Below, one piece after another: positions 1-34,997 of a stretch of DNA of 35,527 nucleotides. The stretch's first letter is position 1. The number at the start of each line of letters is the position of its first letter. The notes under the pieces were generated by a model that was not told where the DNA came from, made no database searches, and saw only the letters and a list, made by a program, of their open reading frames with translations. The position numbers and the translations under genes are program-made. The stretch comes from a virus (Duplodnaviria > Heunggongvirae > Uroviricota > Caudoviricetes), in IMG/VR virus record IMGVR_UViG_2734482778_000013, positions 1-35,527 of that record. One strand, given 5' to 3'.

Positions 1-993
1 CTAATCGATGGACAGTTTATGGACACTTTCAGCCAGCGGATTAAAGTTGATCGCGTCCTGTAAGAAATCCGGCGAAAAATGAGCGTACGTCATTGTCTGC
101 TGAATCGTGGCGTGCCCCAGGATTCGTTGCAACGTAACAATATTTCCGCCATTCATCATAAAGTGTGTGGCAAATGTATGACGCATGACATGCGTAGCCT
201 GCCCCTTCGGCAAATCCGGTTTCACCTCCTGAAGAATCTCCCGGAACTTCAGATAATCAACCTGATACAACAACCCCGTTCGACGGGTTTTAATCAGAGG
301 CACAACCGAATCCGCCACAGGAACCGAACGGGATTTTCCGTTTTTGGTGTTAAAGAACGTCACCCGGTTGCCAACGATATGCTCTCCACGTAGTTCTGAT
401 GCTTCACTCCATCGGGCACCAGTAGAAAGACACAGAATGGCAACACGACGCGCATCCCCCTCCAGTCGCTCAAGAAGCCGCTCAATCTCATCATCAGAAA
501 GAAAGGCCATCTCTGTGTTCTGAACTTTCAGTTTACGTATACCGCGTACAGGGTTCGCGTTGTGAAAGACCTCAGCTTCAATCAGCACCGTGAACATGGT
601 AGACAGAACGCATAAATCACGATTAATACTGGACGGCATTAATCCGGCCTGTAATTTCTCTGACCGATATTCAAGCATAAATTTTCGCGTCATCTGACTG
701 GCGCGAGGATCTCCCATTTCACGAATAACCTTCCCTAGCCTGACCCTGTAGCTATCCCCGTAAGCCTGATTACGCCCGTCAAGCATCCACCACGCATCAA
801 GCAGCTCTGATAATCGCCGCTGATCAGCTGGCTTAGCCTGCCATGGCTTGTCATGGAAGTTCTGTAACACATACTTCTCAAACTCCTGAGCCTTTGATTT
901 CAGGGTAAAGGTTTTCCGAATCCGCTTTCCTTCCGCCCCCTGAGGTCTGACATCAACCCGATAACGTCCGTCTTTGAGTTGCTTAATCGACAT
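1..993 (-). CDS. int: Phage tyrosine integrase (P2/186 Int-like); ATG at 993 preferred over track TTG at 1008
   Basis: ORF ends with stop at 1-3; N-terminus MSIKQLKDGRYRVDVRP resembles P2-family Int N-termini; C-terminal tyrosine-recombinase signature (HTFATHFMMNGG...LGHATIQQTMTYAHF); GGAGG RBS 8 nt upstream of ATG 993. Confidence 0.9.
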   Translation of the reverse strand: MSIKQLKDGRYRVDVRPQGAEGKRIRKTFTLKSKAQEFEKYVLQNFHDKPWQAKPADQRRLSELLDAWWMLDGRNQAYGDSYRVRLGKVIREMGDPRASQMTRKFMLEYRSEKLQAGLMPSSINRDLCVLSTMFTVLIEAEVFHNANPVRGIRKLKVQNTEMAFLSDDEIERLLERLEGDARRVAILCLSTGARWSEASELRGEHIVGNRVTFFNTKNGKSRSVPVADSVVPLIKTRRTGLLYQVDYLKFREILQEVKPDLPKGQATHVMRHTFATHFMMNGGNIVTLQRILGHATIQQTMTYAHFSPDFLQDAINFNPLAESVHKLSID

Positions 994-1062
994 GATTAGC
1001 CCCTCCAACGGATAAATTAACTAAACACTCCTTGCGAGATGTAATTCGCTCAATGTGTAAAG

Positions 1063-2932: not shown

Positions 2933-3331
2933 ATGGCTAAAACCCGGCACAAATTCGCAACAGCAGCAGGATATTTTTGTATGAAGCAACGACGTAATTC
3001 TTCACAGCAACGCTTCCGCAACGGGGCGGAGCGCCATGCTAACCGTTTCGCTACCAGTGCATCACGCAGCAACATCCGCTACAGCCTGAGTGATACACAC
3101 GCAACGCCGGATGGCCACGCTGTAAAACAAATCGGCGAGCATACCTGGCTGATTGAGAAGGCTGGAATCGTGGTTCACAGATGCCCACGCAATCCGTTTA
3201 CTGGAAACCGCATTTTTGCTCTAAGCAGCGGCGACAATCAGTTCGGGCAGGATTTCACATTATACGAAGCGCTTCGCACGGTTGATCGTCTGCTGCGTGG
3301 ACAGAGTTTTATTAAACAGACTGATTTATAA
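2933..3331 (+). CDS. Hypothetical protein (alternative start at 2981)
   Basis: 132-aa ORF; no recognised domain. Confidence 0.4.
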   Translation: MAKTRHKFATAAGYFCMKQRRNSSQQRFRNGAERHANRFATSASRSNIRYSLSDTHATPDGHAVKQIGEHTWLIEKAGIVVHRCPRNPFTGNRIFALSSGDNQFGQDFTLYEALRTVDRLLRGQSFIKQTDL

Positions 3332-3341
3332 CAGGTGATTT

Positions 3342-3629
3342 ATGACCAAAGAGCATGCACAAGGTGTATTTATCCGTTTTATTGATTTTCGCGGTGAACT
3401 GTTATTACGCGCATCCGCTATTGATGGAGTGGCTCCGGCGGGTAAAAACGGAGCCAACGAAGCCACTTACGTTTATCTGAACGGCACGCGACTGCTTGTG
3501 GAACTTCCGTACCAGACCGTACGAGAAATCATTAGTGAAGCTGAAAAGGCACGCCAGGCTAATGGCGATAAACCCTATATCGAAATTATTTGTATGGATT
3601 CAGAAACTGAAATTCAGAAAGCAGATTAA
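3342..3629 (+). CDS. Hypothetical protein
   Basis: 95-aa ORF with AGGTGA RBS upstream. Confidence 0.5.
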   Translation: MTKEHAQGVFIRFIDFRGELLLRASAIDGVAPAGKNGANEATYVYLNGTRLLVELPYQTVREIISEAEKARQANGDKPYIEIICMDSETEIQKAD

Positions 3630-3640
3630 AGGGCGTTGCG

Positions 3641-3883
3641 ATGGGCAAAGAATATAAAACTCTCATTAACAAAGCACTTGAGCGTTTTTATTTTCGCTTA
3701 AGTGCATCAGGCGCTCATGCTGAACGTGCAGCCCGTGACTCATTGACCAGAGCAATCCGGAGTCTGTATGACGTTGCTTTTTACGCTGATGATCTGGATG
3801 CACTTAACGAACTTTCCGAGCTGATCTGTGCCGCAGAATGCGGGGAACACATTGAACCGTATAAGCTGGGGAATATCGCATGA
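3641..3883 (+). CDS. Hypothetical protein
   Basis: 80-aa ORF, tight spacing in operon. Confidence 0.45.
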   Translation: MGKEYKTLINKALERFYFRLSASGAHAERAARDSLTRAIRSLYDVAFYADDLDALNELSELICAAECGEHIEPYKLGNIA

Positions 3884-3993
3884 GTATATTTATTTCGTGG
3901 CTCATTCTGATTATTTCGGTGATCTGCGCTATTGGCATTATGCGAATTATTCATTCAGTGAAAAAGATTGAGCGTTTTTTCTCTGACGAATAA
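3880..3993 (+). CDS. Candidate small hydrophobic membrane peptide (37 aa)
   Basis: ATGA start/stop overlap with upstream ORF; translation MSIFISWLILIISVICAIGIMRIIHSVKKIERFFSDE has one predicted TM helix; below ORF-track length cutoff. Confidence 0.3.
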   Translation: MSIFISWLILIISVICAIGIMRIIHSVKKIERFFSDE

Positions 3994-4086
3994 CAGCACA
4001 AATAAAACACCAGATTAAATAAGAAAACGTGAAAACCATCCGCATTAGCGGAGGTATTCGCACACGTAAATAACGGAGATACAAAA

Positions 4087-4497: not shown

Positions 4498-4520
4498 GGT
4501 TACTGGACAAAGGGGGCGCA

Positions 4521-4724
4521 ATGGCAATTAAGCGATTTACCGTCGTTCGTTTCACTTCCAGAGGACGTGAATACGAAGTTGACGAACGGCTGATTAAAAC
4601 GCTCGACCGTCACCGTTTGCAACCTGACGCGCATCACATTTATCTCACTGACGACACTTACTTCTGCGCCACCAACGTGGTGCAGGTGAACCTTATCCGA
4701 CAGGTACAGGAGTCACGCAGATGA
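4521..4724 (+). CDS. Hypothetical protein
   Basis: 67-aa ORF, GGGGG RBS, ATGA overlap with next gene. Confidence 0.45.
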   Translation: MAIKRFTVVRFTSRGREYEVDERLIKTLDRHRLQPDAHHIYLTDDTYFCATNVVQVNLIRQVQESRR

Positions 4725-4966
4725 CCATTCTGGACTACATCGCCGCCAATCCGGGTTGTAGCGGTGGAGAAATCGCCGCCGCGCTGAATACCCCAACCAC
4801 AGCCATTAATGCGGAGTTACGCCGACTCTGGCGCAGCGGTTCAGTCATAAGAAAAGAGCGCAAAACAGGCGGTCGCTTTCCTTACCAGATAAACCCGATG
4901 CCGTTCGGGTGCGGCAATCCACTTACCAACATGTTTAACCAACTACTGAAGGAAGCCAGAGCATGA
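4721..4966 (+). CDS. Putative winged-helix DNA-binding protein
   Basis: 81 aa; segment GGEIAAALNTPTTAINAELRRLWRSGSV resembles a wHTH recognition helix/wing; translationally coupled on both sides. Confidence 0.4.
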   Translation: MTILDYIAANPGCSGGEIAAALNTPTTAINAELRRLWRSGSVIRKERKTGGRFPYQINPMPFGCGNPLTNMFNQLLKEARA

Positions 4967-5262
4967 GCACCATCAACCACCAGGAACTACGCGAACTGGC
5001 GACTGACCTGCAACGAATGGCAACGCATCAAAAATTACTGGCGTTTCGCGCAATGCTCTCGCCGTCTGCCGTACTGGCGCTACTGGATGAACTGGAGCAC
5101 GCCAGAACCATGGCTCCTGCCATTCGTCTGACGCTCCATCATGAAATCAAGGATTTTTGCGCGACGCTGGAGTCACCAGGTGAATCAGAAACGCCGGAAG
5201 CAATGCAGCAGGAGCTGCTGCAACGCATCGACAACGTTTTCGATTTTTTCCTTAACCAGTAA
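4963..5262 (+). CDS. Hypothetical protein
   Basis: 99-aa ORF, ATGA overlap with upstream gene. Confidence 0.45.
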   Translation: MSTINHQELRELATDLQRMATHQKLLAFRAMLSPSAVLALLDELEHARTMAPAIRLTLHHEIKDFCATLESPGESETPEAMQQELLQRIDNVFDFFLNQ

Positions 5263-5273
5263 AGGACCGCGAT

Positions 5274-5477
5274 ATGAACAAAAAGACCTGGTTTCGCGCA
5301 TACATGTGGGCGCTGGTATGCGTCCTCGTCTCTCTCATTCTGTATGCAGGACTACTCCCCCGAATGATTTCATCAGACAGCTCCTTCCTGGTATTGCTAG
5401 GCATTTTCATTGCCATGCTGTACCCGGCAGGCGTTGTTCGCCTTTTCAGTAAGTACATCGAGGAAATCAAACAATGA
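5274..5477 (+). CDS. Small two-TM membrane protein, partner of SPFH lipoprotein
   Basis: 67 aa with two hydrophobic helices (WALVCVLVSLILYAGLL; FLVLLGIFIAMLYPAGVV); stop overlaps start of downstream gene (ATGA). Confidence 0.55.
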   Translation: MNKKTWFRAYMWALVCVLVSLILYAGLLPRMISSDSSFLVLLGIFIAMLYPAGVVRLFSKYIEEIKQ

Positions 5478-6304
5478 AGAAATTCAAACTCTTTCAGATT
5501 CTCCCGCTTTTTGCCGCCATCCTGCTGGTTGGCTGCGATCGCGTTGAGCCTGGTAATGTGGGCATCAAAGTCAACAAGCTGGGCGACGACAAAGGCGTTG
5601 GCGAAGTGGTTGGCGTTGGCCGCTACTGGACTGGCTGGAATACAGAGGTTTACATCTTCCCGACCTTCAAACAAATGAAGACCTACGATGAGCCGTTCAG
5701 CTTCCAGATGAGTGACGGCACAACCATCGGCTATCACATCGGCGTGGCTTACAAGGTTGATCCATCCAAAGTTACCACAGTGTTTCAGACCTACCGCAAA
5801 GGCGTGGATGACATTACCGACACTGACCTGCGCCAGAAGATCGCCGATGCACTCAACCGACTGGCCAGCAAAATGACCACCGATAAGTTTATCGACGGTG
5901 GTAAGTCTGAACTGCTGGATTCAGCACTTAAAGATATTCAGGAAGAGATGACCCCCATCGGCATTCAGGTCATGAGCCTCTCTTATGTCGGTAAACCGGA
6001 ATATCCGCCAACCGTTATCGACAGCATTAACGCCAAAGTCACGGCAAACCAGAAAACCCTGCAACGCGAACAGGAAGTCAAGCAACGCGAAGCAGAAGCC
6101 AACATGCTGCGCGCAGAAGCTGCCGGACAGGCTGATGCCATTCGCACGAAAGCCCAAGCCGAAGCCGATGCCATTCGTTTACGCGGTGAAGCACTGCGCC
6201 AGAACCCCGGTGTTATGGAGCTGGAAGCAATTAACAAATGGAACGGCACGCTGCCGCAATACATGACCAGTAATACCGCTGTTCCGTTTGTTCCGGTGAA
6301 GTAA
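5474..6304 (+). CDS. SPFH/band-7 (prohibitin/HflK-C-like) domain lipoprotein
   Basis: N-terminal signal peptide with lipobox LLVGC; central band-7-like region and C-terminal Ala/Glu/Gln/Arg-rich coiled-coil segment typical of HflK/HflC-type proteins. Confidence 0.7.
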   Translation: MKKFKLFQILPLFAAILLVGCDRVEPGNVGIKVNKLGDDKGVGEVVGVGRYWTGWNTEVYIFPTFKQMKTYDEPFSFQMSDGTTIGYHIGVAYKVDPSKVTTVFQTYRKGVDDITDTDLRQKIADALNRLASKMTTDKFIDGGKSELLDSALKDIQEEMTPIGIQVMSLSYVGKPEYPPTVIDSINAKVTANQKTLQREQEVKQREAEANMLRAEAAGQADAIRTKAQAEADAIRLRGEALRQNPGVMELEAINKWNGTLPQYMTSNTAVPFVPVK

Positions 6305-6310
6305 TTAAAC

Positions 6311-6355
6311 CCGGCCAGTGAAAATCGCTGGCCGGAGCAGTATCAGGATTTTTTT
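6311..6355 (+). terminator. Rho-independent terminator after SPFH gene
   Basis: Hairpin CCGGCCAG-(9 nt)-CTGGCCGG followed by a T-run (GATTTTTTTAG). Confidence 0.6.
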
Positions 6356-6672
6356 AGTATGCCGTTCTCACAAAAAAACCGCTTGCCATGCCGCAATCAG
6401 TCAGGTTACATTTCCGCTGCACCTCATAAAACGGGTGCCGGGATTGGAACCCCGCACACTAACAGAGCGCACAACCGCGCCAGCGGTTTTTTTGTGCGTA
6501 CCGTATCGCCACGTCTTTTTCGCGTCAGAATTATGGTGGGGCGTACAGGGCCAGCATCAGCTGGGCCGGGTCCTCTGTTAGCCGGTAGTTCCAACCCTGT
6601 ACGTCTCACCACCCCGAGCTTGGAACCTCTGGATGGTGAGTTTTCAAAACTGACTAACAGAGAGGCCACACC

Positions 6673-6903
6673 ATGGCAAACCGCAAACAGCACCGCGCTA
6701 TCGCGGAGCGTCGTCACATCCAGACTGAAATCAACCGCAGACTTTTCCGCGCATTCCGCGTCGCGCAGATCATGCACATCAATATGCTGCATGAGCGCAG
6801 CCACGCGCTATCGAACAGCTATTCCGCCTCTGTTTTCAGCTATCTGGCGGATGATCTGCGCGAGCTTCAGCGGCTCATCCAGCAGCAAAACAAACTCCAT
6901 TAA
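6673..6903 (+). CDS. Hypothetical small basic protein
   Basis: 76-aa ORF with AGAGG RBS 7 nt upstream of ATG. Confidence 0.4.
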   Translation: MANRKQHRAIAERRHIQTEINRRLFRAFRVAQIMHINMLHERSHALSNSYSASVFSYLADDLRELQRLIQQQNKLH

Positions 6904-6975
6904 TTCTGGTTCCGGGCCTTTCCTGCACCTTGCGGCGGGAGGCCTTCGCACATCTGTAACAAGAGGATTGCCGCA

Positions 6976-7341
6976 ATGATTCTCGCCAACGACTTTCTTG
7001 AATACCTGCTCAACACAGAGCGCGATCTTGCCGTTCGCGTGCGTGACCGTTATGACATGTACCTGAAATCCCTGCCTGTACCGCAGCTCGCTGACGGAAA
7101 GATTGTTATTGATGGCCGCTACATGATTGACAGCCACGAGGGAAATTACAGGCTTTACCGCATTGAAGGCGGCACCCCGTCCGTTATTGGCATTTACCAG
7201 CGCCCATCCTCTGCAATCGTCGATGTGATTGCCGACAGCATCCGCATCACACATCGCCATGCCGACACAGAAGACACCGTGCTGGAAATTCAGCGGCTGG
7301 CTACAGTCTGCCGCGACACCCTGAATGGCATGACGAAGTAA
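6976..7341 (+). CDS. Hypothetical protein immediately upstream of gpA
   Basis: 121-aa ORF with AAGAGGA RBS; stop 7 nt before gpA start. Confidence 0.5.
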   Translation: MILANDFLEYLLNTERDLAVRVRDRYDMYLKSLPVPQLADGKIVIDGRYMIDSHEGNYRLYRIEGGTPSVIGIYQRPSSAIVDVIADSIRITHRHADTEDTVLEIQRLATVCRDTLNGMTK

Positions 7342-7347
7342 ATCACT

Positions 7348-10170
7348 ATGACGGCAGAGTACATCAGGGACTGGCAACAACCGCGCCACGCAGTGGGGCG
7401 TGAAGGAACGGGGATCCCCGCTCCTGAATCCGCGCTTTCCTCCTGGCTGGATGCCTACCGGGTAGAGAACGAGCGCCGCCAGGAAATGGCTGATGCGGCG
7501 TTCTCCGCCACGCCGCTGGGCAACCTGATTAATAAAAGCCTGGACGCACAGGAAAAACAGGACAAAACCATCACACTGGCAGGAGACGCCAGAAAACAGG
7601 CACGCGGCGCGGTGGATGAAGCCATGGCCTCGCTGCGCCTGCTGCCGTCCTATCTGCGCGATCCGCTTATTCGCCACCTCTCCTTCCTGCGCAAAAAACA
7701 GGAAGCCGATCGCCGGAAAGGCAAAAAGAGCTGGCAGGCAGAACGCTATGCACGCGGAACCCTGCGCAAGATATTCGATCGCATTAACCGTGCCGACAGT
7801 CGCTGGCTGACACCGGGTTATCGCTCCCTCGCCGGACGTGAACGCCTGGATGATTTGCTTTACCTGCCGCAGCTCAACAAACACCAGATACAGACGCTGG
7901 CCACCATGACGGCGGCGATGTTCAGCAGCACCTTCGAAAAACTCTGCGATGGCTTTGGCGCGACCGATGGCGAGCTGACCATGGATGTAACCCTGAAGGC
8001 GTATCAGATGCTGGCCCGCATGGCGTTACACCTGCACGCCATGCCTCCACATTATGACGCACTGACAACAGACAAAGACCGGAGGAACGAACCGGACACG
8101 GAGCTGCTGCCGGGCGCAATCCTTCGCCTGACCTGTGCGGAATGGTGGAAACGCAAACTGTGGCTGTTACGTTGCGAGTGGAGAGAAGAACAACTCCGCG
8201 CCGCCTGTCTGGTTTCCAGAAAAACATCACCCTATCTGAGCCAGGACGCGTTAAGCGAGTTTCGCGCACAGCGCGAGAAAACACGCGATTTCCTGAAAAG
8301 TTTCATGCTGGAAAATGAAGACGGGTTCACGATTGATCTCGAGACGGTGTATTACGCGGGAGTAAGTAACCCGGTTCACCGTAAGGCAGAAATGATGGCC
8401 ACCATGAAGGGGCTGGAACTTCTGGTCGAAGCCCGTGGCGACAAAGCGGTGTTTCTGACTGTCACCTGCCCGTCAAAATACCACGCCACAACGGAGAACG
8501 GTCATCCGAATCCCAAATGGAACGGGGCCACAATGCGCGACTCCAGCGATTACCTGGTTAACACGTTTTTTGCGGCGGTCCGCAAGAAACTGAATCGCGA
8601 CGGCCTGCGCTGGTATGGCATCCGCACGGTGGAGCCTCACCATGACGGCACAGTGCACTGGCATATGATGGTCTTTGCACATCCGGAAGAAATCGACAGC
8701 ATCGTGGCCATCACCCGCGATATTGCCATTCAGGAAGACCGCCACGAGCTGGGCAATGATATTACTCCGCGCTTTAAGGTGGAGTATGTCGACGGCTCAA
8801 AAGGCACACCGACCAGCTATATCGCCACCTACATCGGAAAAAACCTGGACAGCCGCGCCGTGGATGGCATCGACCCGAAAACGGGCAAGCCACGCGTTGA
8901 CCACGAAACCGGAAAATCAATGGCCGAGAGCGTGGAGCGCGCCATCGGCTGGGCGCGCCTTCACCGCGTCCGCCAGTTCCAGTTCTTTGGCATCCCCTCC
9001 CGTCAGGTGTGGCGTGAACTGCGCCGCCTCGCCAGCCAGATGGCACGCAACCCGGAAGGCCCGCAACGGCTGAAGGATGACGCAATGGATGCGGTTCTTG
9101 CTGCCGCTGATGCCGGGTGTTTTGCCTCCTACATTGAAAAACAGGGTGGCGTACTTGTTCCACGCAAGGACTACCTGATTCGCACCGCCTACGACCTCGC
9201 AGATGAGCTGAACGATTACGGCGAGCAGGGCGTACAGATTTACGGGATCTGGTCACCACTCATCGGGGAATCCTCCCGTGTGTGCACGCATCCGGATAAC
9301 TGGAAGCTGGTAAGACGCAAACCGGAAGCGGAAGACAGCGCCCGCGAAAATGGTTTTGACCTTCAGGGCGGCCCTGCCGCCCCTTGGACTCGTGGCAATA
9401 ACTGTCCCCGTGTACAGGAAACAGGCAACAACGGGACAGAACAGCCGGAAGAACGGCCAGCACCGTGGCCGCAGATTCCTGACGGCGTTGAAGTGAATGA
9501 ATGGATGCGCTCACTGAAACGGCACGAACGCCGGGCGCTGATGCGTTCGCTTCGTGACAAACAGGCAAAAAACAGCAGTGATGAAATGCAAAGCTGGACA
9601 CAGAGCCGCAAACAGCAGCGGCCTTTGCCTGATAACCACGAATTACTCGCTAAAGAATGGCGGGAGTCTGCTGAATCTCTCGGCCTGCATATTGGTGAAC
9701 AGCAGATGCAGCACCTGTTACGGGGCGGCAGTCTGTACGTTGACGGCAGCATCATTGCACCGCAGGGATTTGAAATTGTACGCAAACCGGATACCCGCCC
9801 GGACAGCCGAATCACGCAGCTCTGGCAGCGCCTGAGCCGTAATCACGGCGTAAGCAGCACGGAGATCCGCCATAACCCGGCCGCCAGCTATCTGGAACAG
9901 CTGGGGGCATCAGACCCCGAAGCCGCCGCACGTCTGGCATCCACACTTCAGCAGGACCAGAACACCATGAAAACCCCCGTTACCGTGCTTTCTGACATGC
10001 TGCGCGCCATCCGCGACGCAGAGCATGCACAGAGAATCAGTGAAACCACTGAACGCGCCCGCCGCAAAGCAGACCTGCTGCGGGGTGGCCTGACAAGTGG
10101 AAACAAAAAACAGACAGAAACGGGATTCACAAATCCCGTAAATGAGCAAAAAACGCGCCGCGATATATGA
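7348..10170 (+). CDS. A: Rolling-circle replication initiator endonuclease (P2 gpA family), with long C-terminal extension
   Basis: HUH motif VHWHMMVFAHPEE and paired catalytic tyrosines YIATYIGKN; 940 aa (longer than P2 gpA); position after early operon. Confidence 0.85.
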   Translation: MTAEYIRDWQQPRHAVGREGTGIPAPESALSSWLDAYRVENERRQEMADAAFSATPLGNLINKSLDAQEKQDKTITLAGDARKQARGAVDEAMASLRLLPSYLRDPLIRHLSFLRKKQEADRRKGKKSWQAERYARGTLRKIFDRINRADSRWLTPGYRSLAGRERLDDLLYLPQLNKHQIQTLATMTAAMFSSTFEKLCDGFGATDGELTMDVTLKAYQMLARMALHLHAMPPHYDALTTDKDRRNEPDTELLPGAILRLTCAEWWKRKLWLLRCEWREEQLRAACLVSRKTSPYLSQDALSEFRAQREKTRDFLKSFMLENEDGFTIDLETVYYAGVSNPVHRKAEMMATMKGLELLVEARGDKAVFLTVTCPSKYHATTENGHPNPKWNGATMRDSSDYLVNTFFAAVRKKLNRDGLRWYGIRTVEPHHDGTVHWHMMVFAHPEEIDSIVAITRDIAIQEDRHELGNDITPRFKVEYVDGSKGTPTSYIATYIGKNLDSRAVDGIDPKTGKPRVDHETGKSMAESVERAIGWARLHRVRQFQFFGIPSRQVWRELRRLASQMARNPEGPQRLKDDAMDAVLAAADAGCFASYIEKQGGVLVPRKDYLIRTAYDLADELNDYGEQGVQIYGIWSPLIGESSRVCTHPDNWKLVRRKPEAEDSARENGFDLQGGPAAPWTRGNNCPRVQETGNNGTEQPEERPAPWPQIPDGVEVNEWMRSLKRHERRALMRSLRDKQAKNSSDEMQSWTQSRKQQRPLPDNHELLAKEWRESAESLGLHIGEQQMQHLLRGGSLYVDGSIIAPQGFEIVRKPDTRPDSRITQLWQRLSRNHGVSSTEIRHNPAASYLEQLGASDPEAAARLASTLQQDQNTMKTPVTVLSDMLRAIRDAEHAQRISETTERARRKADLLRGGLTSGNKKQTETGFTNPVNEQKTRRDI

Positions 10171-10217
10171 AGCGCGCATAAAACAGGCAAAAACGGGATT
10201 TAAAAATCCCGTAAACG
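10117..10217. promoter_or_regulatory. Two copies of a ~25-bp palindromic repeat; candidate parC-like centromere/ParR operator (alternative: replication-associated site)
   Basis: AAACGGGATTcacAAATCCCGTAAA at about 10118-10143 and AAACGGGATTtaaAAATCCCGTAAA at about 10191-10216, each an 8-bp-arm inverted repeat; the second overlaps the presumptive parM promoter. Confidence 0.5.
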
Positions 10218-10246
10218 ATTAATTAATCAACATAAGGAAAAGCGAC

Positions 10247-11206
10247 ATGAAAATTTGTATCGACGACGGCTCCACCAACATCAAGCTGGCATGGACTGAG
10301 AACGGCGAACGCCGCAACGCCATCAGCCCGAACAGCTTCAAGTCGGAATGGTCTGCGCCGTTCGGTGGCACGCAGCCCGCGAACTACATGCTTGATGGTG
10401 TGCGCTATGGTTTTGATCCGGTCAGCGATCGCTTTGTCCAGACGACCGACACGCAATACCAGTACAGCGATGTGAATGTCATTGCCATTCATCACGCGCT
10501 GGTCAAATCAGGCATCACGCCACAGGAGGTGGATGTGGTTGTCACCCTGCCACTGAGCGAGTATTTCGACACAAACGCACAGCCGGACATGGCCAACATC
10601 AACCGCAAAAAAGCGAACGTCATGCGCCCGGTGGAGTACCAGAACGGCGAAGCATTCACTATCCGTAACGTACGGGTTATGCCTGAATCCATTCCGGCTG
10701 GCTTTAAAGCACTGGCCGACATGAGTCCGTTTGAATCCCTGCTGATTGTGGATTTGGGCGGAACCACGCTGGATGTGGCAAAGGTTCAGGGGCAGCTGGC
10801 AGGTATCAGCCAGGTGTTTTGCGATCCACACGTAGGCGTTTCTCTGATGGCCGATGCCGTGCTGTCGGTGATGGCCACCAACGGTATGCGCACCAGTCAC
10901 CACATCGCCAATACCATTATCGAACATCGCCACGATGAAGCCTGGCTGCGCCAGCACATCCACAATGACGCGCATTACGCCAGCCTGATGGCAGTTATTC
11001 GTGAAAAGGAAGAAACACTGAAACAACGCGTGATCCGCGCGCTGGCGGGTTTTTCGGGTTACGGGCGGGTGATGGTTGTAGGTGGAGGAGCGGAGATTGT
11101 GGCACCCGCTATCTGCGAAGCCTGCGGAGTTAATGCGACTTTCATCGCGGACGGGGTGCCACAGTTTGCTCTGGTTAATGGGCTGTACGCAATGGACCAG
11201 GAGTAA
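10247..11206 (+). CDS. parM: ParM/StbA-family actin-like segregation ATPase
   Basis: Strong resemblance along the whole length to plasmid R1 ParM as recalled (IDDGSTNIKL..., YSDVNV..HHAL, VMPESIPAG, LIIDLGGTTLD, GGGAE, LVNG); AAGGAAAAG RBS. Confidence 0.85.
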   Translation: MKICIDDGSTNIKLAWTENGERRNAISPNSFKSEWSAPFGGTQPANYMLDGVRYGFDPVSDRFVQTTDTQYQYSDVNVIAIHHALVKSGITPQEVDVVVTLPLSEYFDTNAQPDMANINRKKANVMRPVEYQNGEAFTIRNVRVMPESIPAGFKALADMSPFESLLIVDLGGTTLDVAKVQGQLAGISQVFCDPHVGVSLMADAVLSVMATNGMRTSHHIANTIIEHRHDEAWLRQHIHNDAHYASLMAVIREKEETLKQRVIRALAGFSGYGRVMVVGGGAEIVAPAICEACGVNATFIADGVPQFALVNGLYAMDQE

Positions 11207-11210
11207 ATCA

Positions 11211-11525
11211 ATGACGACACCAACCAGACGGATAAGTTTCTATCTGAAGCCCACCGTCGTCAAGAGCGAACGGGAGGCGTGCAGTTACCTCGACAGCCTG
11301 CCAGCCTCCGAACGCAGCCGCGCACAACGCGCGGCTTTTCTGGCCGGACTGGCTCTTATAAAACGCACCCCCGCGTTGGCGTATTCGCTGGCAGAATGGT
11401 CAGAAGACGAAATACGGATGCCACCGCTACCAGTACAGCCTGAAAAACCGGCGCAACCAGCAGCAGACAGCGCCCCCCATATGCAGCAGGTGAAAAAGAA
11501 TATTCAGGCGTTTTTCCCGAAGTGA
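11211..11525 (+). CDS. parR: ParR/StbB-family centromere-binding adaptor
   Basis: N-terminal RHH-like region ISFYLKPTVVKSEREACSYLDSLPASERSRAQRAAFLAGLAL parallels R1 ParR as recalled; GGAG RBS; directly downstream of parM. Confidence 0.75.
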   Translation: MTTPTRRISFYLKPTVVKSEREACSYLDSLPASERSRAQRAAFLAGLALIKRTPALAYSLAEWSEDEIRMPPLPVQPEKPAQPAADSAPHMQQVKKNIQAFFPK

Positions 11526-11539
11526 AAACAGGAGTAACT

Positions 11540-11827
11540 ATGTCCACCATTACCAAAGAATGGTTACAACGTAAAATCACAGAGTTTAAATCGTGGCGCG
11601 AAGACATCCCGTTCGGTCTTGATGAAGACGATCACAATATGTTAATCGCACTGGAAATCGCACTTGCATCACTGGAAGCAGAGCCAGTGGCATGGATGCA
11701 CGCAAATAATCCTATTGGAATACCGGCGATAACAAGAAGTAAAGATGTTGCAGACAGCTGGCGCTCTAAGGGATGGAATGTATTGCCTCTTTATTCACTG
11801 ACCCGCTCCATCAATTTATGCCATTAA
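11540..11827 (+). CDS. Hypothetical protein (AT-rich cargo)
   Basis: 95-aa ORF from ATG 11540 with AGGAG RBS; track start 11522 is an upstream GTG. Confidence 0.5.
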   Translation: MSTITKEWLQRKITEFKSWREDIPFGLDEDDHNMLIALEIALASLEAEPVAWMHANNPIGIPAITRSKDVADSWRSKGWNVLPLYSLTRSINLCH

Positions 11828-11838
11828 TGGAAGTAATC

Positions 11839-12198
11839 ATGATGAAAGATAATTCCGGAAGCCAGCGTGCATCAGTTGCAGTTATGGTAATGATTAAATT
11901 TGTGAAACAGTACACCGGAAAGCCAATCTCGCTCCGGCAATTAAGCAAAGAAACCGTTTCACTGTCATATCTGGAGCAAATATTCAGATATTTACGGGAA
12001 AGTAGCCTGGTAAAAGCCACACGCGGCCCGGGTGGTGGATATATCCCAACAAAAGAAAATTACAGTGTTGGTGATATTGTCCGGGCAATGAAGTGTTCCG
12101 GATTATATACACAGCACGTTATTCTGGCTGCACTGGATAATATTTCTTTAACCAGCCTGCAGGAAGACACAAATTATCAGTTGTCTGCCATTAAATAA
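11839..12198 (+). CDS. Rrf2-family (IscR/NsrR-like) transcriptional regulator
   Basis: Rrf2 HTH signature ISLRQLSKETVSLSYLEQIFRYLRESSLVKATRGPGGGY; lacks the 3-Cys cluster ligands; low-GC region; GGAAG RBS before ATG 11839. Confidence 0.7.
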   Translation: MMKDNSGSQRASVAVMVMIKFVKQYTGKPISLRQLSKETVSLSYLEQIFRYLRESSLVKATRGPGGGYIPTKENYSVGDIVRAMKCSGLYTQHVILAALDNISLTSLQEDTNYQLSAIK

Positions 12199-12252
12199 GA
12201 AAACCCGGAACGGGTGCGCAAATTCTTTGTGCGCCCGTTCCGGGTTGGACAA
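12199..12252 (-). terminator. Long hairpin terminator downstream of ogr-like gene
   Basis: AACCCGGAACGGGTGCGCAAA-TTC-TTTGTGCGCCCGTTCCGGGTT, about 21-bp stem allowing G-U pairs; on the minus strand it is followed by TTTTCTTATTT. Confidence 0.55.
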
Positions 12253-12266
12253 GCGAAGCGCGTCAG

Positions 12267-12524
12267 CTATCCGGCCTGCAACAACTCCAGAGCCATTTGT
12301 TTTTCTTCCGGACGCATCCGCTCAATCAACAGCTTTAACACACCATTCTCCAGCCCGCTGGGCACCAGTGTGTGCGAGTAGGTCAGATTCATCACCCAGG
12401 TATGTCCGCACTCGAGACGGGTGCAACGGTAATACACATCAGCAAACTGATCGGTTTTCCAGGCTGTTTTCTCAATCACTGCATGTGCACCGCAGCAATG
12501 ACATCGCGCTTTCTGTCTGCGCAT
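12267..12524 (-). CDS. ogr: Ogr/Delta-family zinc-finger late-gene transcriptional activator
   Basis: C-x2-C-x22-C-x4-C arrangement (RCHCC...YYRCTRLECGHTW) matching P2 Ogr spacing as recalled; strong RBS GGGAGG before ATG at 12524; longer ORF-track start at 12593 rejected. Confidence 0.7.
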   Translation of the reverse strand: MRRQKARCHCCGAHAVIEKTAWKTDQFADVYYRCTRLECGHTWVMNLTYSHTLVPSGLENGVLKLLIERMRPEEKQMALELLQAG

Positions 12525-12568
12525 TTTCCACCTCCCGGAACAGCGTTTTACTGCCACCGATTTTACCC

Positions 12569-12588
12569 GCTCTTTCCCCATACCGCAC
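12569..12588. other. Candidate cos (cohesive end) site
   Basis: Minus-strand GTGCGGTATGGGGAAAGAGC shares the GGGGAAAG core and flanks with P2/186 cos as recalled; located at the 3' end of portal gene Q as in P2. Confidence 0.3.
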
Positions 12589-12589
12589 A

Positions 12590-13624
12590 TCACTCCATGG
12601 GTTCATCAAAATCAAGAATAAATTTCACCTCCCCCAGTCGTCTGATATCCGGGTCGCTGTTGATCCCCTCCATAATCAGGCGGCGCATCGGGATAACCTC
12701 ATCCCTGTAATATGCCTCGCGGGATTTCAGTGGGTCACCAAGCCCGGCCGTATTTGCGGGAATGATGCCGGCAAGTCCGGGTGGGAAACGGTGCGCAACG
12801 AGCTGATCCTGGGCACTGATGGTTTTTATATTCAGGAACTCATCTTTTGTACCTGAATCCCCGATAGGGATCACCTTAACGCCTTCTTTGTCTCCGCCCG
12901 GTATATTGATAAACATGGATTTAAAGTTGCCCGCCCCTTTTGACGCCTCTATCTTTTTACGGAATTCCGCCTCGAGCTCGGGATCCATGTCCGGGTCAGT
13001 GGAATACAGGATATAACCAAGATGTGCGCCGTTCTTGTAATACTTGCGGCGAAAGCGGGTGGCATCCACATTCAGCATGGCAGATTCCATCCCGTGAATA
13101 TAATCCGGGACACCGTAAACCTGCTGTTGTGGGTCATAAATTGCCACGAACACCACTTCGCCTGGCGGGTAAACGAGATCTTCCAGTGCCGCCTGCACAA
13201 TCACCGTGCCACCTTCGTTGTTGCGCCGCAGGTACAGAGAAGGCAACGTATGCAGGCGCACCACCCGCCCGAAGCCATTGCGCACTTTAAGCAGCCCCAT
13301 ATCCCCGAATATCAGCAGATTGGTCACCGCTGCCGCCATGGCGGCGTGTGTCATACCACCACCACCCCGAAAACCCTGCATGATCATATTGACGCGCGCA
13401 CGCAATACCGCGCCGTGATACGGTGCGATATTGGCCAACATAGCGAGATCCATGCGCTCAATGGGCGGCGTGTACCAGCCGTTATAGCCATCCCAGAGCG
13501 AGCCGTAATAACAGCCCCATGCAGCGACTGGTTCCGGGTCACCAAATTCAATAAACGTCATTTTGCTGGCTGTTTTTTTTGCCACGCCATCGTGTAGCAC
13601 GGGGGATTTTTTCTTTTTACTCAT
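12590..13624 (-). CDS. Q: Portal protein (P2 gpQ-like)
   Basis: 344 aa, same length as P2 Q; 8-nt overlap with terminase gene; synteny Q-P | O-N-M-L. Confidence 0.9.
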   Translation of the reverse strand: MSKKKKSPVLHDGVAKKTASKMTFIEFGDPEPVAAWGCYYGSLWDGYNGWYTPPIERMDLAMLANIAPYHGAVLRARVNMIMQGFRGGGGMTHAAMAAAVTNLLIFGDMGLLKVRNGFGRVVRLHTLPSLYLRRNNEGGTVIVQAALEDLVYPPGEVVFVAIYDPQQQVYGVPDYIHGMESAMLNVDATRFRRKYYKNGAHLGYILYSTDPDMDPELEAEFRKKIEASKGAGNFKSMFINIPGGDKEGVKVIPIGDSGTKDEFLNIKTISAQDQLVAHRFPPGLAGIIPANTAGLGDPLKSREAYYRDEVIPMRRLIMEGINSDPDIRRLGEVKFILDFDEPME

Positions 13625-34090: not shown

Positions 34091-34750
34091 CTATCCACCA
34101 CCTGATTAATGCGTTCTGCGTGCCATTCTGGCGCTGTATGCACACACTGCGTAAACGGTGTGACGTAAAGCGTGAGGTGACGTAAACCGCGCTACCCCCT
34201 CCAACCCGCGGGTTTTGTGTCGAAACACTTTTTCAGTTTTCTGCCGTGCAAAAATGACCGCCAGCCCGCGCAGCAACTGAGGGAAAAGCGAAGATCTGAA
34301 ATTTCACGCTTTGAAATTTTTTGCAGTTTTCAGAGTGGTTTTTACGATCGAATAAATGGCAGGAGAAAGAAAACAGACTGATATTAAAAGAGTTTTTATG
34401 CTTTACGTGAGACGAGAAACGATCACGAAAGGATCGCATCAAAAAATCGTCAAACAACGAAGCCAGACGCGGCGCGGCCTGCGTAAAATTAAGAGTCAAA
34501 ATTAAACTGAAAAAAGGATCAATACAGTGCATCGATCGCACATGACGATCTACGCAGCAACAGGACAAAAAAACCGGCGCGAACGCCGGCGGAAGCATGT
34601 ATCAAATGCGTGACTGAATAATGTCTGCGGTCGGGAATTTTATATCAAAAGGCTGACAGGCCTCAACGGATTGAAACAAGGGAAAAAACCAGGCTAGAAT
34701 TCGCGCGGGTGCCTTTCGGCTGATGGCTGGAGGGTAAACCCGAAGGCCGG

Positions 34751-34990
34751 ATGTGGAAAGGCCCCGAGTCAACTTTAACGTTAACCCGAGGCCCTAGCCA
34801 TACAACCTTCGCAAGTCGTAGGTTAGCGCCTCTCCGAAAAAGGAGCAAGTGCTATGTCGCAAAAATCGCTAATCGCCATCACCACACTGTGCGTGACGGC
34901 AATCCTCATCATCTGGATGTTGCAGGGTTCGCTCTGCGAGATACGGATGAGCTTCTGGGGAGCGGAGTTTGCGGCGTTCTTACAGTGTAA
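34751..34990 (+). CDS. mok: mok-like overlapping reading frame of hok locus
   Basis: 79-codon ORF starting about 100 nt upstream of the hok-like ORF in a different frame and ending 7 nt before its stop. Confidence 0.4.
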   Translation: MWKGPESTLTLTRGPSHTTFASRRLAPLRKRSKCYVAKIANRHHHTVRDGNPHHLDVAGFALRDTDELLGSGVCGVLTV

Positions 34991-34997
34991 ACCGTAA
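34854..34997 (+). CDS. hok: Hok/Gef-family type I toxin (47 aa)
   Basis: Translation MSQKSLIAITTLCVTAILIIWMLQGSLCEIRMSFWGAEFAAFLQCKP: TM helix followed by SLCEIR...AAF motif as in R1 Hok; GGAG RBS; below ORF-track cutoff. Confidence 0.75.
   Translation: MSQKSLIAITTLCVTAILIIWMLQGSLCEIRMSFWGAEFAAFLQCKP

Follow-up and report, generated by a model that had tools for sequence, protein, structure and literature searches.

An actin-type ParMRC partition cassette linked to replication gene A in a P2-family prophage of Escherichia coli

The stretch of DNA analysed here (IMG/VR record IMGVR_UViG_2734482778_000013; 35,527 nucleotides, hereafter the window) carries a temperate phage of the P2 family, of a type that occurs as an integrated prophage in Escherichia coli. 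Its gene A (gpA; 7348–10170, plus strand) encodes a 940-residue HUH-type replication endonuclease (Pfam Phage_GPA, PF05840; 8.8e-130) and ends with the stop codon at 10168–10170. Directly after it, on the same strand, lie parM (10247–11206) and, beginning 5 bp after the parM stop, parR (11211–11525); two direct repeats, each holding a palindrome, precede parM. A preliminary description of this DNA had given the same coordinates for the two open reading frames (ORFs), had read them as a type II ParM/ParR partition cassette and had taken the phage to be an integrative member of the P2 family with rolling-circle-type replication by gpA. The protein searches reported below bear out the first assignment (Pfam, PHROG and the PDB structures 1mwk and 2jd3), and the integrase, the Phage_GPA match and a near-identical prophage between pheL and raiA bear out the second.

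The product of parM (319 residues) is a full-length ParM, an actin-fold segregation ATPase, and its family assignment is secure. It matches the Pfam StbA_N and ParM C-terminal domains (1.8e-82 and 1.6e-67, both far above the cut-offs) and PHROG 691, 'partition protein' (3e-89), and it aligns end to end with the ParM structure of plasmid R1 (PDB 1mwk; E 3.8e-92), keeping the phosphate-binding, catalytic and adenosine motifs (DDGSTNIK, VMPESIPAG, DLGGTTLD and GGGAE). Across 80 IMG/VR contigs ParM is 98–100% identical; the nearest plasmid ParMs share 46–52% identity with it, and among the phage collection records the sole other R1-type ParM is that of the phage-plasmid D6 (47.5% identical). The gene is intact in 83 of 83 loci, has a ratio of nonsynonymous to synonymous substitution rates (dN/dS) of 0.053, and is under strong purifying selection.

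The parR product (104 residues) is the ParR/StbB adaptor. It is matched by Pfam Plasmid_stab_B (PF10784; 9.2e-24), by PHROG 2515 (6e-44) and by the ParR structure of plasmid pB171 (PDB 2jd3; E 0.009), and R1 ParR/StbB is 43% identical to it over residues 1–63. The protein consists of an N-terminal DNA-binding part of the ribbon–helix–helix type, a variable proline-rich linker and a C-terminal helix; helices were predicted, with low confidence, at residues 20–29, 32–52, 54–61 and 90–101, and an AlphaFold model with a predicted local distance difference test (pLDDT) score of 62 gave no meaningful Foldseek match in the PDB. Residues 6–14 (RRISFYLKP), which presumably form the DNA-reading strand, are invariant among the phage ParR alleles; in the C-terminal tail, N-I-x-x-[LF]-F-P, the residues N97, I98, F102 and P103 are invariant in the phage ParR family. 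Elsewhere in the protein the alleles are only 53–92% identical. The invariant N-terminal strand and C-terminal tail are consistent with all alleles reading the same conserved DNA site and contacting the same conserved ParM. In an alignment of eight proteins that included plasmid ParRs, N97 was the sole invariant residue of the tail.

At the nucleotide level, parR is much more divergent than the adjoining parM (dS of 0.18–0.55 versus 0.08), with a dN/dS of about 0.28–0.30. When the window and loci L003–L082 were compared, the alleles fell into two or more classes; the proline-rich linker is hypervariable, and both termini are invariant. Similarity of the window to phage P88 (Xuanwuvirus, Peduoviridae) stops at 11363, within parR, and the two ParR proteins are 56% identical; the position of this break suggests a recombination junction inside the gene. 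One further locus (L015) has a truncated parR of 240 nt.

The region upstream of parM contains two 42-nt direct repeats at 10104–10145 and 10177–10218, which are 86% identical and lie 73 bp apart, start to start. Each holds a 20-bp inverted repeat: ACGGGATTcacaAATCCCGT at 10120–10139, with the arms ACGGGATT-N4-AATCCCGT, and ACGGGATTTaaAAATCCCGT at 10193–10212, with the arms ACGGGATTT-N2-AAATCCCGT. The two palindromes previously described are therefore real, but they measure 20 bp and not 25 bp, the AAA flanks belonging to the direct repeat and not to the palindrome. Nor do they both lie behind gene A, as do the two par genes, since palindrome 1 falls in the last 17 codons of the gpA ORF; palindrome 2 ends 35 bp 5′ of the parM start codon. 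The exact AATCCCGT octamer occurs five times in the 35.5-kb window, and four of these occurrences are palindrome arms. Repeat unit 1 was found in nearly all of 81 related loci, and the 73-bp spacing is kept in every locus with both copies. Because this spacing corresponds to about seven helical turns, the palindromes would be presented on the same face of the helix. Their position and architecture make them the candidate ParR-binding site. A natural one-site variant upstream of parM also exists: in locus L080 (IMGVR_UViG_2657245439_000011) exactly one 73-bp unit has been lost, so that only one palindrome remains and the end of gpA is changed.

The cassette is closely tied to gene A. The 3′ part of gpA was found in 1355 genomes, versus 1278 with the cassette, and in 53 loci compared the stretch from parR to the portal gene sorted into 29 sequence clusters. 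With the cassette constant next to gpA and the following interval so varied, the variable hotspot starts after parR, and parMRC is a fixed partner of this type of gpA, not an exchangeable cargo of the hotspot. The preliminary description had likened it to tin and old as hotspot cargo, a view that is contradicted both by this distribution and by the near-identity of ParM among contigs. It had also placed the cassette between gpA and cos. The cassette does follow gpA, but cos could not be located (the P2 cos sequence used as query had no match at three or fewer mismatches), and the interval is for that reason better called gpA-to-portal.

Comparison with P88 (L001) showed how far this linkage extends. 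Only three segments are common to the two phages by blastn: 2972–4066, 4510–11363 and a region around hok/sok. The second of these, at 96% identity, takes in gpA, parM and about half of parR; by blastn the integrase, immunity and late genes of the two phages are unrelated, and the morphogenesis region (12590–34025) shows no similarity to P88. Among related loci, ten carry the portal type of the window and 42 a type only 30–35% identical to it, with the same ParM in all. The gpA–parMRC block has hence been joined to two unrelated morphogenesis backbones and is a mobile replication–segregation block. The backbone of the window appears to be poorly represented among sequenced phages: its head genes find their best matches in the phage collection at about 67–69% identity over less than half their length (Yersinia phage vB_YenM_324 and Cronobacter phage ESSI-2), and its portal is less than 52% identical to anything in PLSDB. 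The same backbone does occur in E. coli FHI_NMBU_10.

The phage is almost always integrated. Of 5426 complete E. coli genomes, 1303 (24%) contain the cassette, O157:H7 and ST131 strains among them, and its places in these genomes are chromosomal in 1441 cases and on a plasmid in two. The prophage inserted between pheL and raiA in FHI_NMBU_10 has a cassette 99.9% identical to that of the window. Six PLSDB records hold most of the cassette, five of them between 227 kb and 1.4 Mb in size. The sixth, NZ_CP148288.1 (pZ1323PEC0009-2, L002), is a complete circular 'plasmid' of 34,461 bp from a cat E. coli isolate and amounts to a whole parMR-bearing phage of the P88 type, with integrase, hok and a com/methyltransferase pair. 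This variant is chromosomal, at 99.9% identity, in the sister human isolate Z1323HEC0067, which, judged by the strain names, apparently comes from the same collection.

Much of this was already on record. The cassette is not an unexpected find: besides being widespread, it is annotated in P88 and its relatives. In P88 and other Xuanwuvirus records the block is 95–96% identical and the genes are annotated as ParM or partition protein, PGAP names the gene ParM in E. coli genomes, and the D6 genome annotation mentions a "phage P88 StbA protein". Rousset et al. (2022), who analysed the gpA–gpQ interval, noted the cassette and raised the idea of an episome in passing. With the cassette, its naming and the episome idea all in the public record, the discovery is a modest one. 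New in the present analysis are the fixation next to gpA, the selection on parM, the sharing between two backbones, the chromosomal bias, and the finding of palindromes instead of iterons.

Elsewhere in the window we identified a tyrosine integrase gene (1–1008, minus strand), genes for a C-type helix–turn–helix repressor and Cox, and the portal gene. Inside the early operon lies an SPFH/Band 7 lipoprotein gene (5474–6304, plus strand; Pfam 5.7e-31), which by position and length (276 residues) is the counterpart of P88 gp12, annotated as a lipoprotein/serine protease. Between it and gene A, on the plus strand, are matches at the Rfam gathering level to isrK (6419–6493) and to the C4 antisense RNA (6529–6616); they adjoin a small ORF corresponding to the P88 'derepression protein', and this region may be an RNA-controlled antirepressor switch. 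Behind parR, within 11540–12198 on the plus strand, two hotspot cargo genes encode an Ead/Ea22-like protein of 95 residues (PHROG 660 and 60, function unassigned) and a 119-residue winged-helix protein of the Rrf2 family (Pfam 2.2e-13; PHROG 24072). PADLOC defence models matched neither these two products nor ParM or ParR, and a defence role for the cassette was rejected on that basis. An Ogr/Delta-like zinc-finger gene (12267–12593, minus strand; Pfam 1.4e-12) overlaps the stop of the portal gene, so that it comes after the portal gene on that strand, unlike the arrangement in P2, where it is near att. Near the far end of the window, a Hok/Gef toxin ORF (34854–34997, plus strand; Pfam 6.5e-07) follows a stretch that Rfam matched to the sok antitoxin RNA below threshold (38.6 bits, the gathering threshold being 59; E 4.6e-07); the whole hok/sok region (34707–34997, plus strand) is 84% identical to P88. 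With ParMRC and hok/sok together, the phage carries analogues of both stability loci of R1, parA (ParMRC) and parB (hok/sok).

From cox to 12198 all genes are on the plus strand, and this run ends at a long, near-perfect GC-rich hairpin (12203–12247, read from the sequence, part of it scored as terminator-like on the minus strand) that separates the plus-strand early and cargo genes from the convergent minus-strand ogr–portal genes. The hairpin probably ends a transcription unit that includes gpA, parM, parR and the two cargo genes. No terminator-like site was called on the plus strand between gpA and parM, which, together with the placement of the cassette behind gpA on the same strand, suggests that it is co-expressed with the early operon.

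We put about even confidence in the reading that the cassette is a complete, selectively maintained type II ParMRC module that forms a unit with gpA and segregates a transient extrachromosomal circle of the phage. A complete and conserved module is here tied to the replication initiator of a phage that is almost always integrated; it is this combination that makes a transient circle the best-supported substrate. ParR dimers would bind the two 20-bp palindromes that straddle the end of gene A just 5′ of parM, and the conserved C-terminal helix of ParR would capture the ends of ParM filaments. ATP-bound ParM would then polymerise between two ParR-bound phage circles and push them apart. Such circles could be present in a newly infected cell until the phage integrates, or once it has excised, spontaneously or on induction, and gpA is making further circles. 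If each daughter cell kept a copy, lysogenisation would become more frequent and curing less so; segregation might also keep the replicating circles spatially organised, and hok/sok on the same phage would kill those cells that still lose it.

Several observations weigh against this account. In R1, parC is made up of 11-bp direct iterons, five in each of the two blocks that flank the promoter, and direct iterons of 10–11 bp, in two blocks upstream of parM, were found in six of the six plasmid or phage-plasmid relatives compared (R1-type IncFII, IncFIA/FIC, IncL/M, IncI/K, a Serratia plasmid and the phage-plasmid D6). The phage palindromes occur in none of these six, and R1-type iterons were not seen in the phage locus. 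The phage ParR is missing the middle helical segment of plasmid ParRs. All ParR homologues that a search found belong to this one prophage family (45–92% identity, with the same N-terminus) and are too close to one another to reveal covariation between ParR and palindrome. A promoter scan 5′ of parM called none; in a control, an R1-type plasmid, it was equally blind to the parC region, where a working parM promoter is to be expected, and its result is consequently uninformative. The literature searched contained no binding, expression or phenotype data for the cassette, and a rolling-circle phage may have no need of active segregation at all. In addition, the arms of the palindromes show no more conservation than the sequence on either side of them (nucleotide diversity of 0.04–0.09 versus 0.05–0.07), and both palindromes can form hairpins of about −10 kcal/mol that are followed, on the minus strand, by a U-rich tract and score as weakly terminator-like.

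These last two properties speak for the reading that the palindromes are tandem leftward (antisense) intrinsic terminators or simple operators, with ParMR acting on another site or being carried as a passenger. We regard this as very unlikely. The far stronger hairpin at 12203–12247 already divides the convergent units, and the polymorphisms lack consistent strand-specific pairing: those in palindrome 1 leave a wobble pair on the minus strand and those in palindrome 2 on the plus strand, with few independent events, while no compensatory pairs were found among them, a result uninformative on RNA pairing. A ParR site would fit the location directly 5′ of parM, the placing of both copies on one helix face and the invariant residues of the ParR β-strand, and a dN/dS of 0.05 speaks against parM being a passenger gene. 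A different question is whether the phage is a facultative plasmid prophage, in which ParMRC would sustain a low-copy episome for many generations, for example when attB is absent. This has been suggested explicitly (Rousset et al. 2022), and it would suit the presence of both R1-style stability functions (ParMRC and hok/sok), the use of a homologous ParM (47.5% identical) by the phage-plasmid D6 and the record pZ1323PEC0009-2, a circle of 34,461 bp that comprises the entire parMR phage with its integrase. That record may, however, represent an episome or merely excised phage DNA, for excised or replicating phage DNA could equally yield a circular contig, and its variant is integrated in the sister isolate. 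The remaining plasmid records are so large (227 kb to 1.4 Mb) that they are integrated copies or mis-assigned replicons, and 1441 of the 1443 places found in complete E. coli genomes lie on the chromosome. A phage-plasmid of the P1, N15, SSU5 or D6 type is extrachromosomal, has a plasmid-type replicon and usually lacks an integrase; here the integrase is present, the places are almost all chromosomal and no plasmid-type replicon was seen. Cis-acting rolling-circle replication of the gpA type is, moreover, not known to sustain stable plasmid maintenance, which we count against a plasmid prophage. We therefore think long-term maintenance as an episome unlikely, and slightly more doubtful its extended form, in which this P2-family phage is a facultative phage-plasmid that, when unintegrable or excised, persists as a low-copy episome by means of a ParMRC and hok/sok set that travels with the replication gene between virion backbones. 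The stable episomal carrier state proposed in the preliminary description can thus point to one circular whole-phage record of 34.5 kb, but in view of the chromosomal bias it is poorly supported.

The preliminary description had also proposed that the cassette excludes R1-type plasmids through partition incompatibility. In a broader form, ParR and the parC-like site of the prophage would destabilise R1-type plasmids or superinfecting relatives. The gpA–portal interval is indeed where P2 holds its exclusion genes (Rousset et al. 2022), ParM and the ParR C-terminal tail are recognisably R1-like, and interference among P88-type phages is conceivable, given that they have the palindromes in common. 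Incompatibility of ParMRC systems follows the specificity of ParR for parC (PMC9426499), and on that footing the different sites make incompatibility with R1 unlikely. The similarity of plasmids in PLSDB to the window begins inside parM, not in the upstream region, and this region, including the candidate centromere, is shared by no PLSDB plasmid apart from those few entries in which the prophage itself is present. The R1-type, IncL/M, IncI/K, Serratia and D6 relatives use direct iterons of a different kind, the DNA-binding part of ParR is only about 40% identical to the plasmid ones, and ParM itself no more than 46–52%. The cassette is moreover invariant, unlike variable defence cargo, and it matched none of the PADLOC defence models. 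An incompatibility weapon is accordingly the most improbable of the explanations that we considered.

An actin-type segregation machine thus sits in an integrated prophage of about a quarter of complete E. coli genomes. If ParMRC does segregate an un-integrated circle, a principle known from the SXT/R391 integrative and conjugative elements (ICEs) and from the corynebacterial prophage CGP3 would hold for a tailed coliphage as well, with consequences for the question of how temperate phages make sure of lysogeny and keep from being lost.

The closest known systems by sequence are the parMRC loci (parA/stb) of the IncFII plasmids R1 and NR1 and par1 of pB171, which have the same order of site, parM and parR. 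R1 and pB171 ParM are 46–47% identical to the phage protein over the full length, with the catalytic motifs kept, and their ParRs share with the phage ParR an N-terminal domain at 43% identity and a C-terminal tail of the form K-x-N-hydrophobic. The differences lie in the setting and in the site. R1 and pB171 are plasmids, whereas the phage cassette is carried by an integrating phage; they have two blocks of 10–11-bp direct iterons where the phage has two 20-bp palindromes 73 bp apart, the first of which, unlike in the plasmids, lies inside the coding sequence of gene A; and the phage ParR, with 104 residues compared with 117–147 in the plasmid proteins, is without the middle helical segment. 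Among phages, P88 and about 1300 E. coli prophages have a ParM 98–99% identical to that of the window and the same palindromes; the window departs from P88 in its ParR allele, and its integrase, immunity and morphogenesis regions are unrelated to those of P88 by blastn. The P1-like phage-plasmid D6 has the R1-type ParM described above followed by a ParR-like gene, but it is a 91-kb plasmid prophage with direct repeats of the TCTCAAAT type upstream and without the phage palindromes.

By life style, the nearest parallels are two integrative elements that share with the phage an actin-like ATPase, an adaptor and upstream repeats, the expression timing of the phage cassette being suggested by its gene arrangement. 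The srpMRC locus of SXT/R391 ICEs is an actin-type partition system that was shown to stabilise the excised form (PMC4489591). Like the phage, these are integrative elements that replicate as a rolling circle when excised and combine actin-type partition with a toxin–antitoxin system, and the srpMRC centromere consists of a few direct and inverted repeats 5′ of the ATPase gene (PMC4489591). They differ from the phage in being ICEs, and SrpM and SrpR are distant from R1 ParM and ParR, whereas the phage cassette is a close member of the R1 family. In the Corynebacterium glutamicum prophage CGP3, the adaptor AlpA of the actin-like AlpC binds upstream of its own operon; the AlpAC genes are switched on early, and without them the circular phage DNA does not replicate efficiently (PMC4446434). 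AlpAC belongs to a different actin-like family, with an actinobacterial host and a different gene order; it nevertheless offers, with srpMRC, a precedent for an integrative element that uses an actin-like ATPase and its adaptor on the excised, circular form of its DNA.

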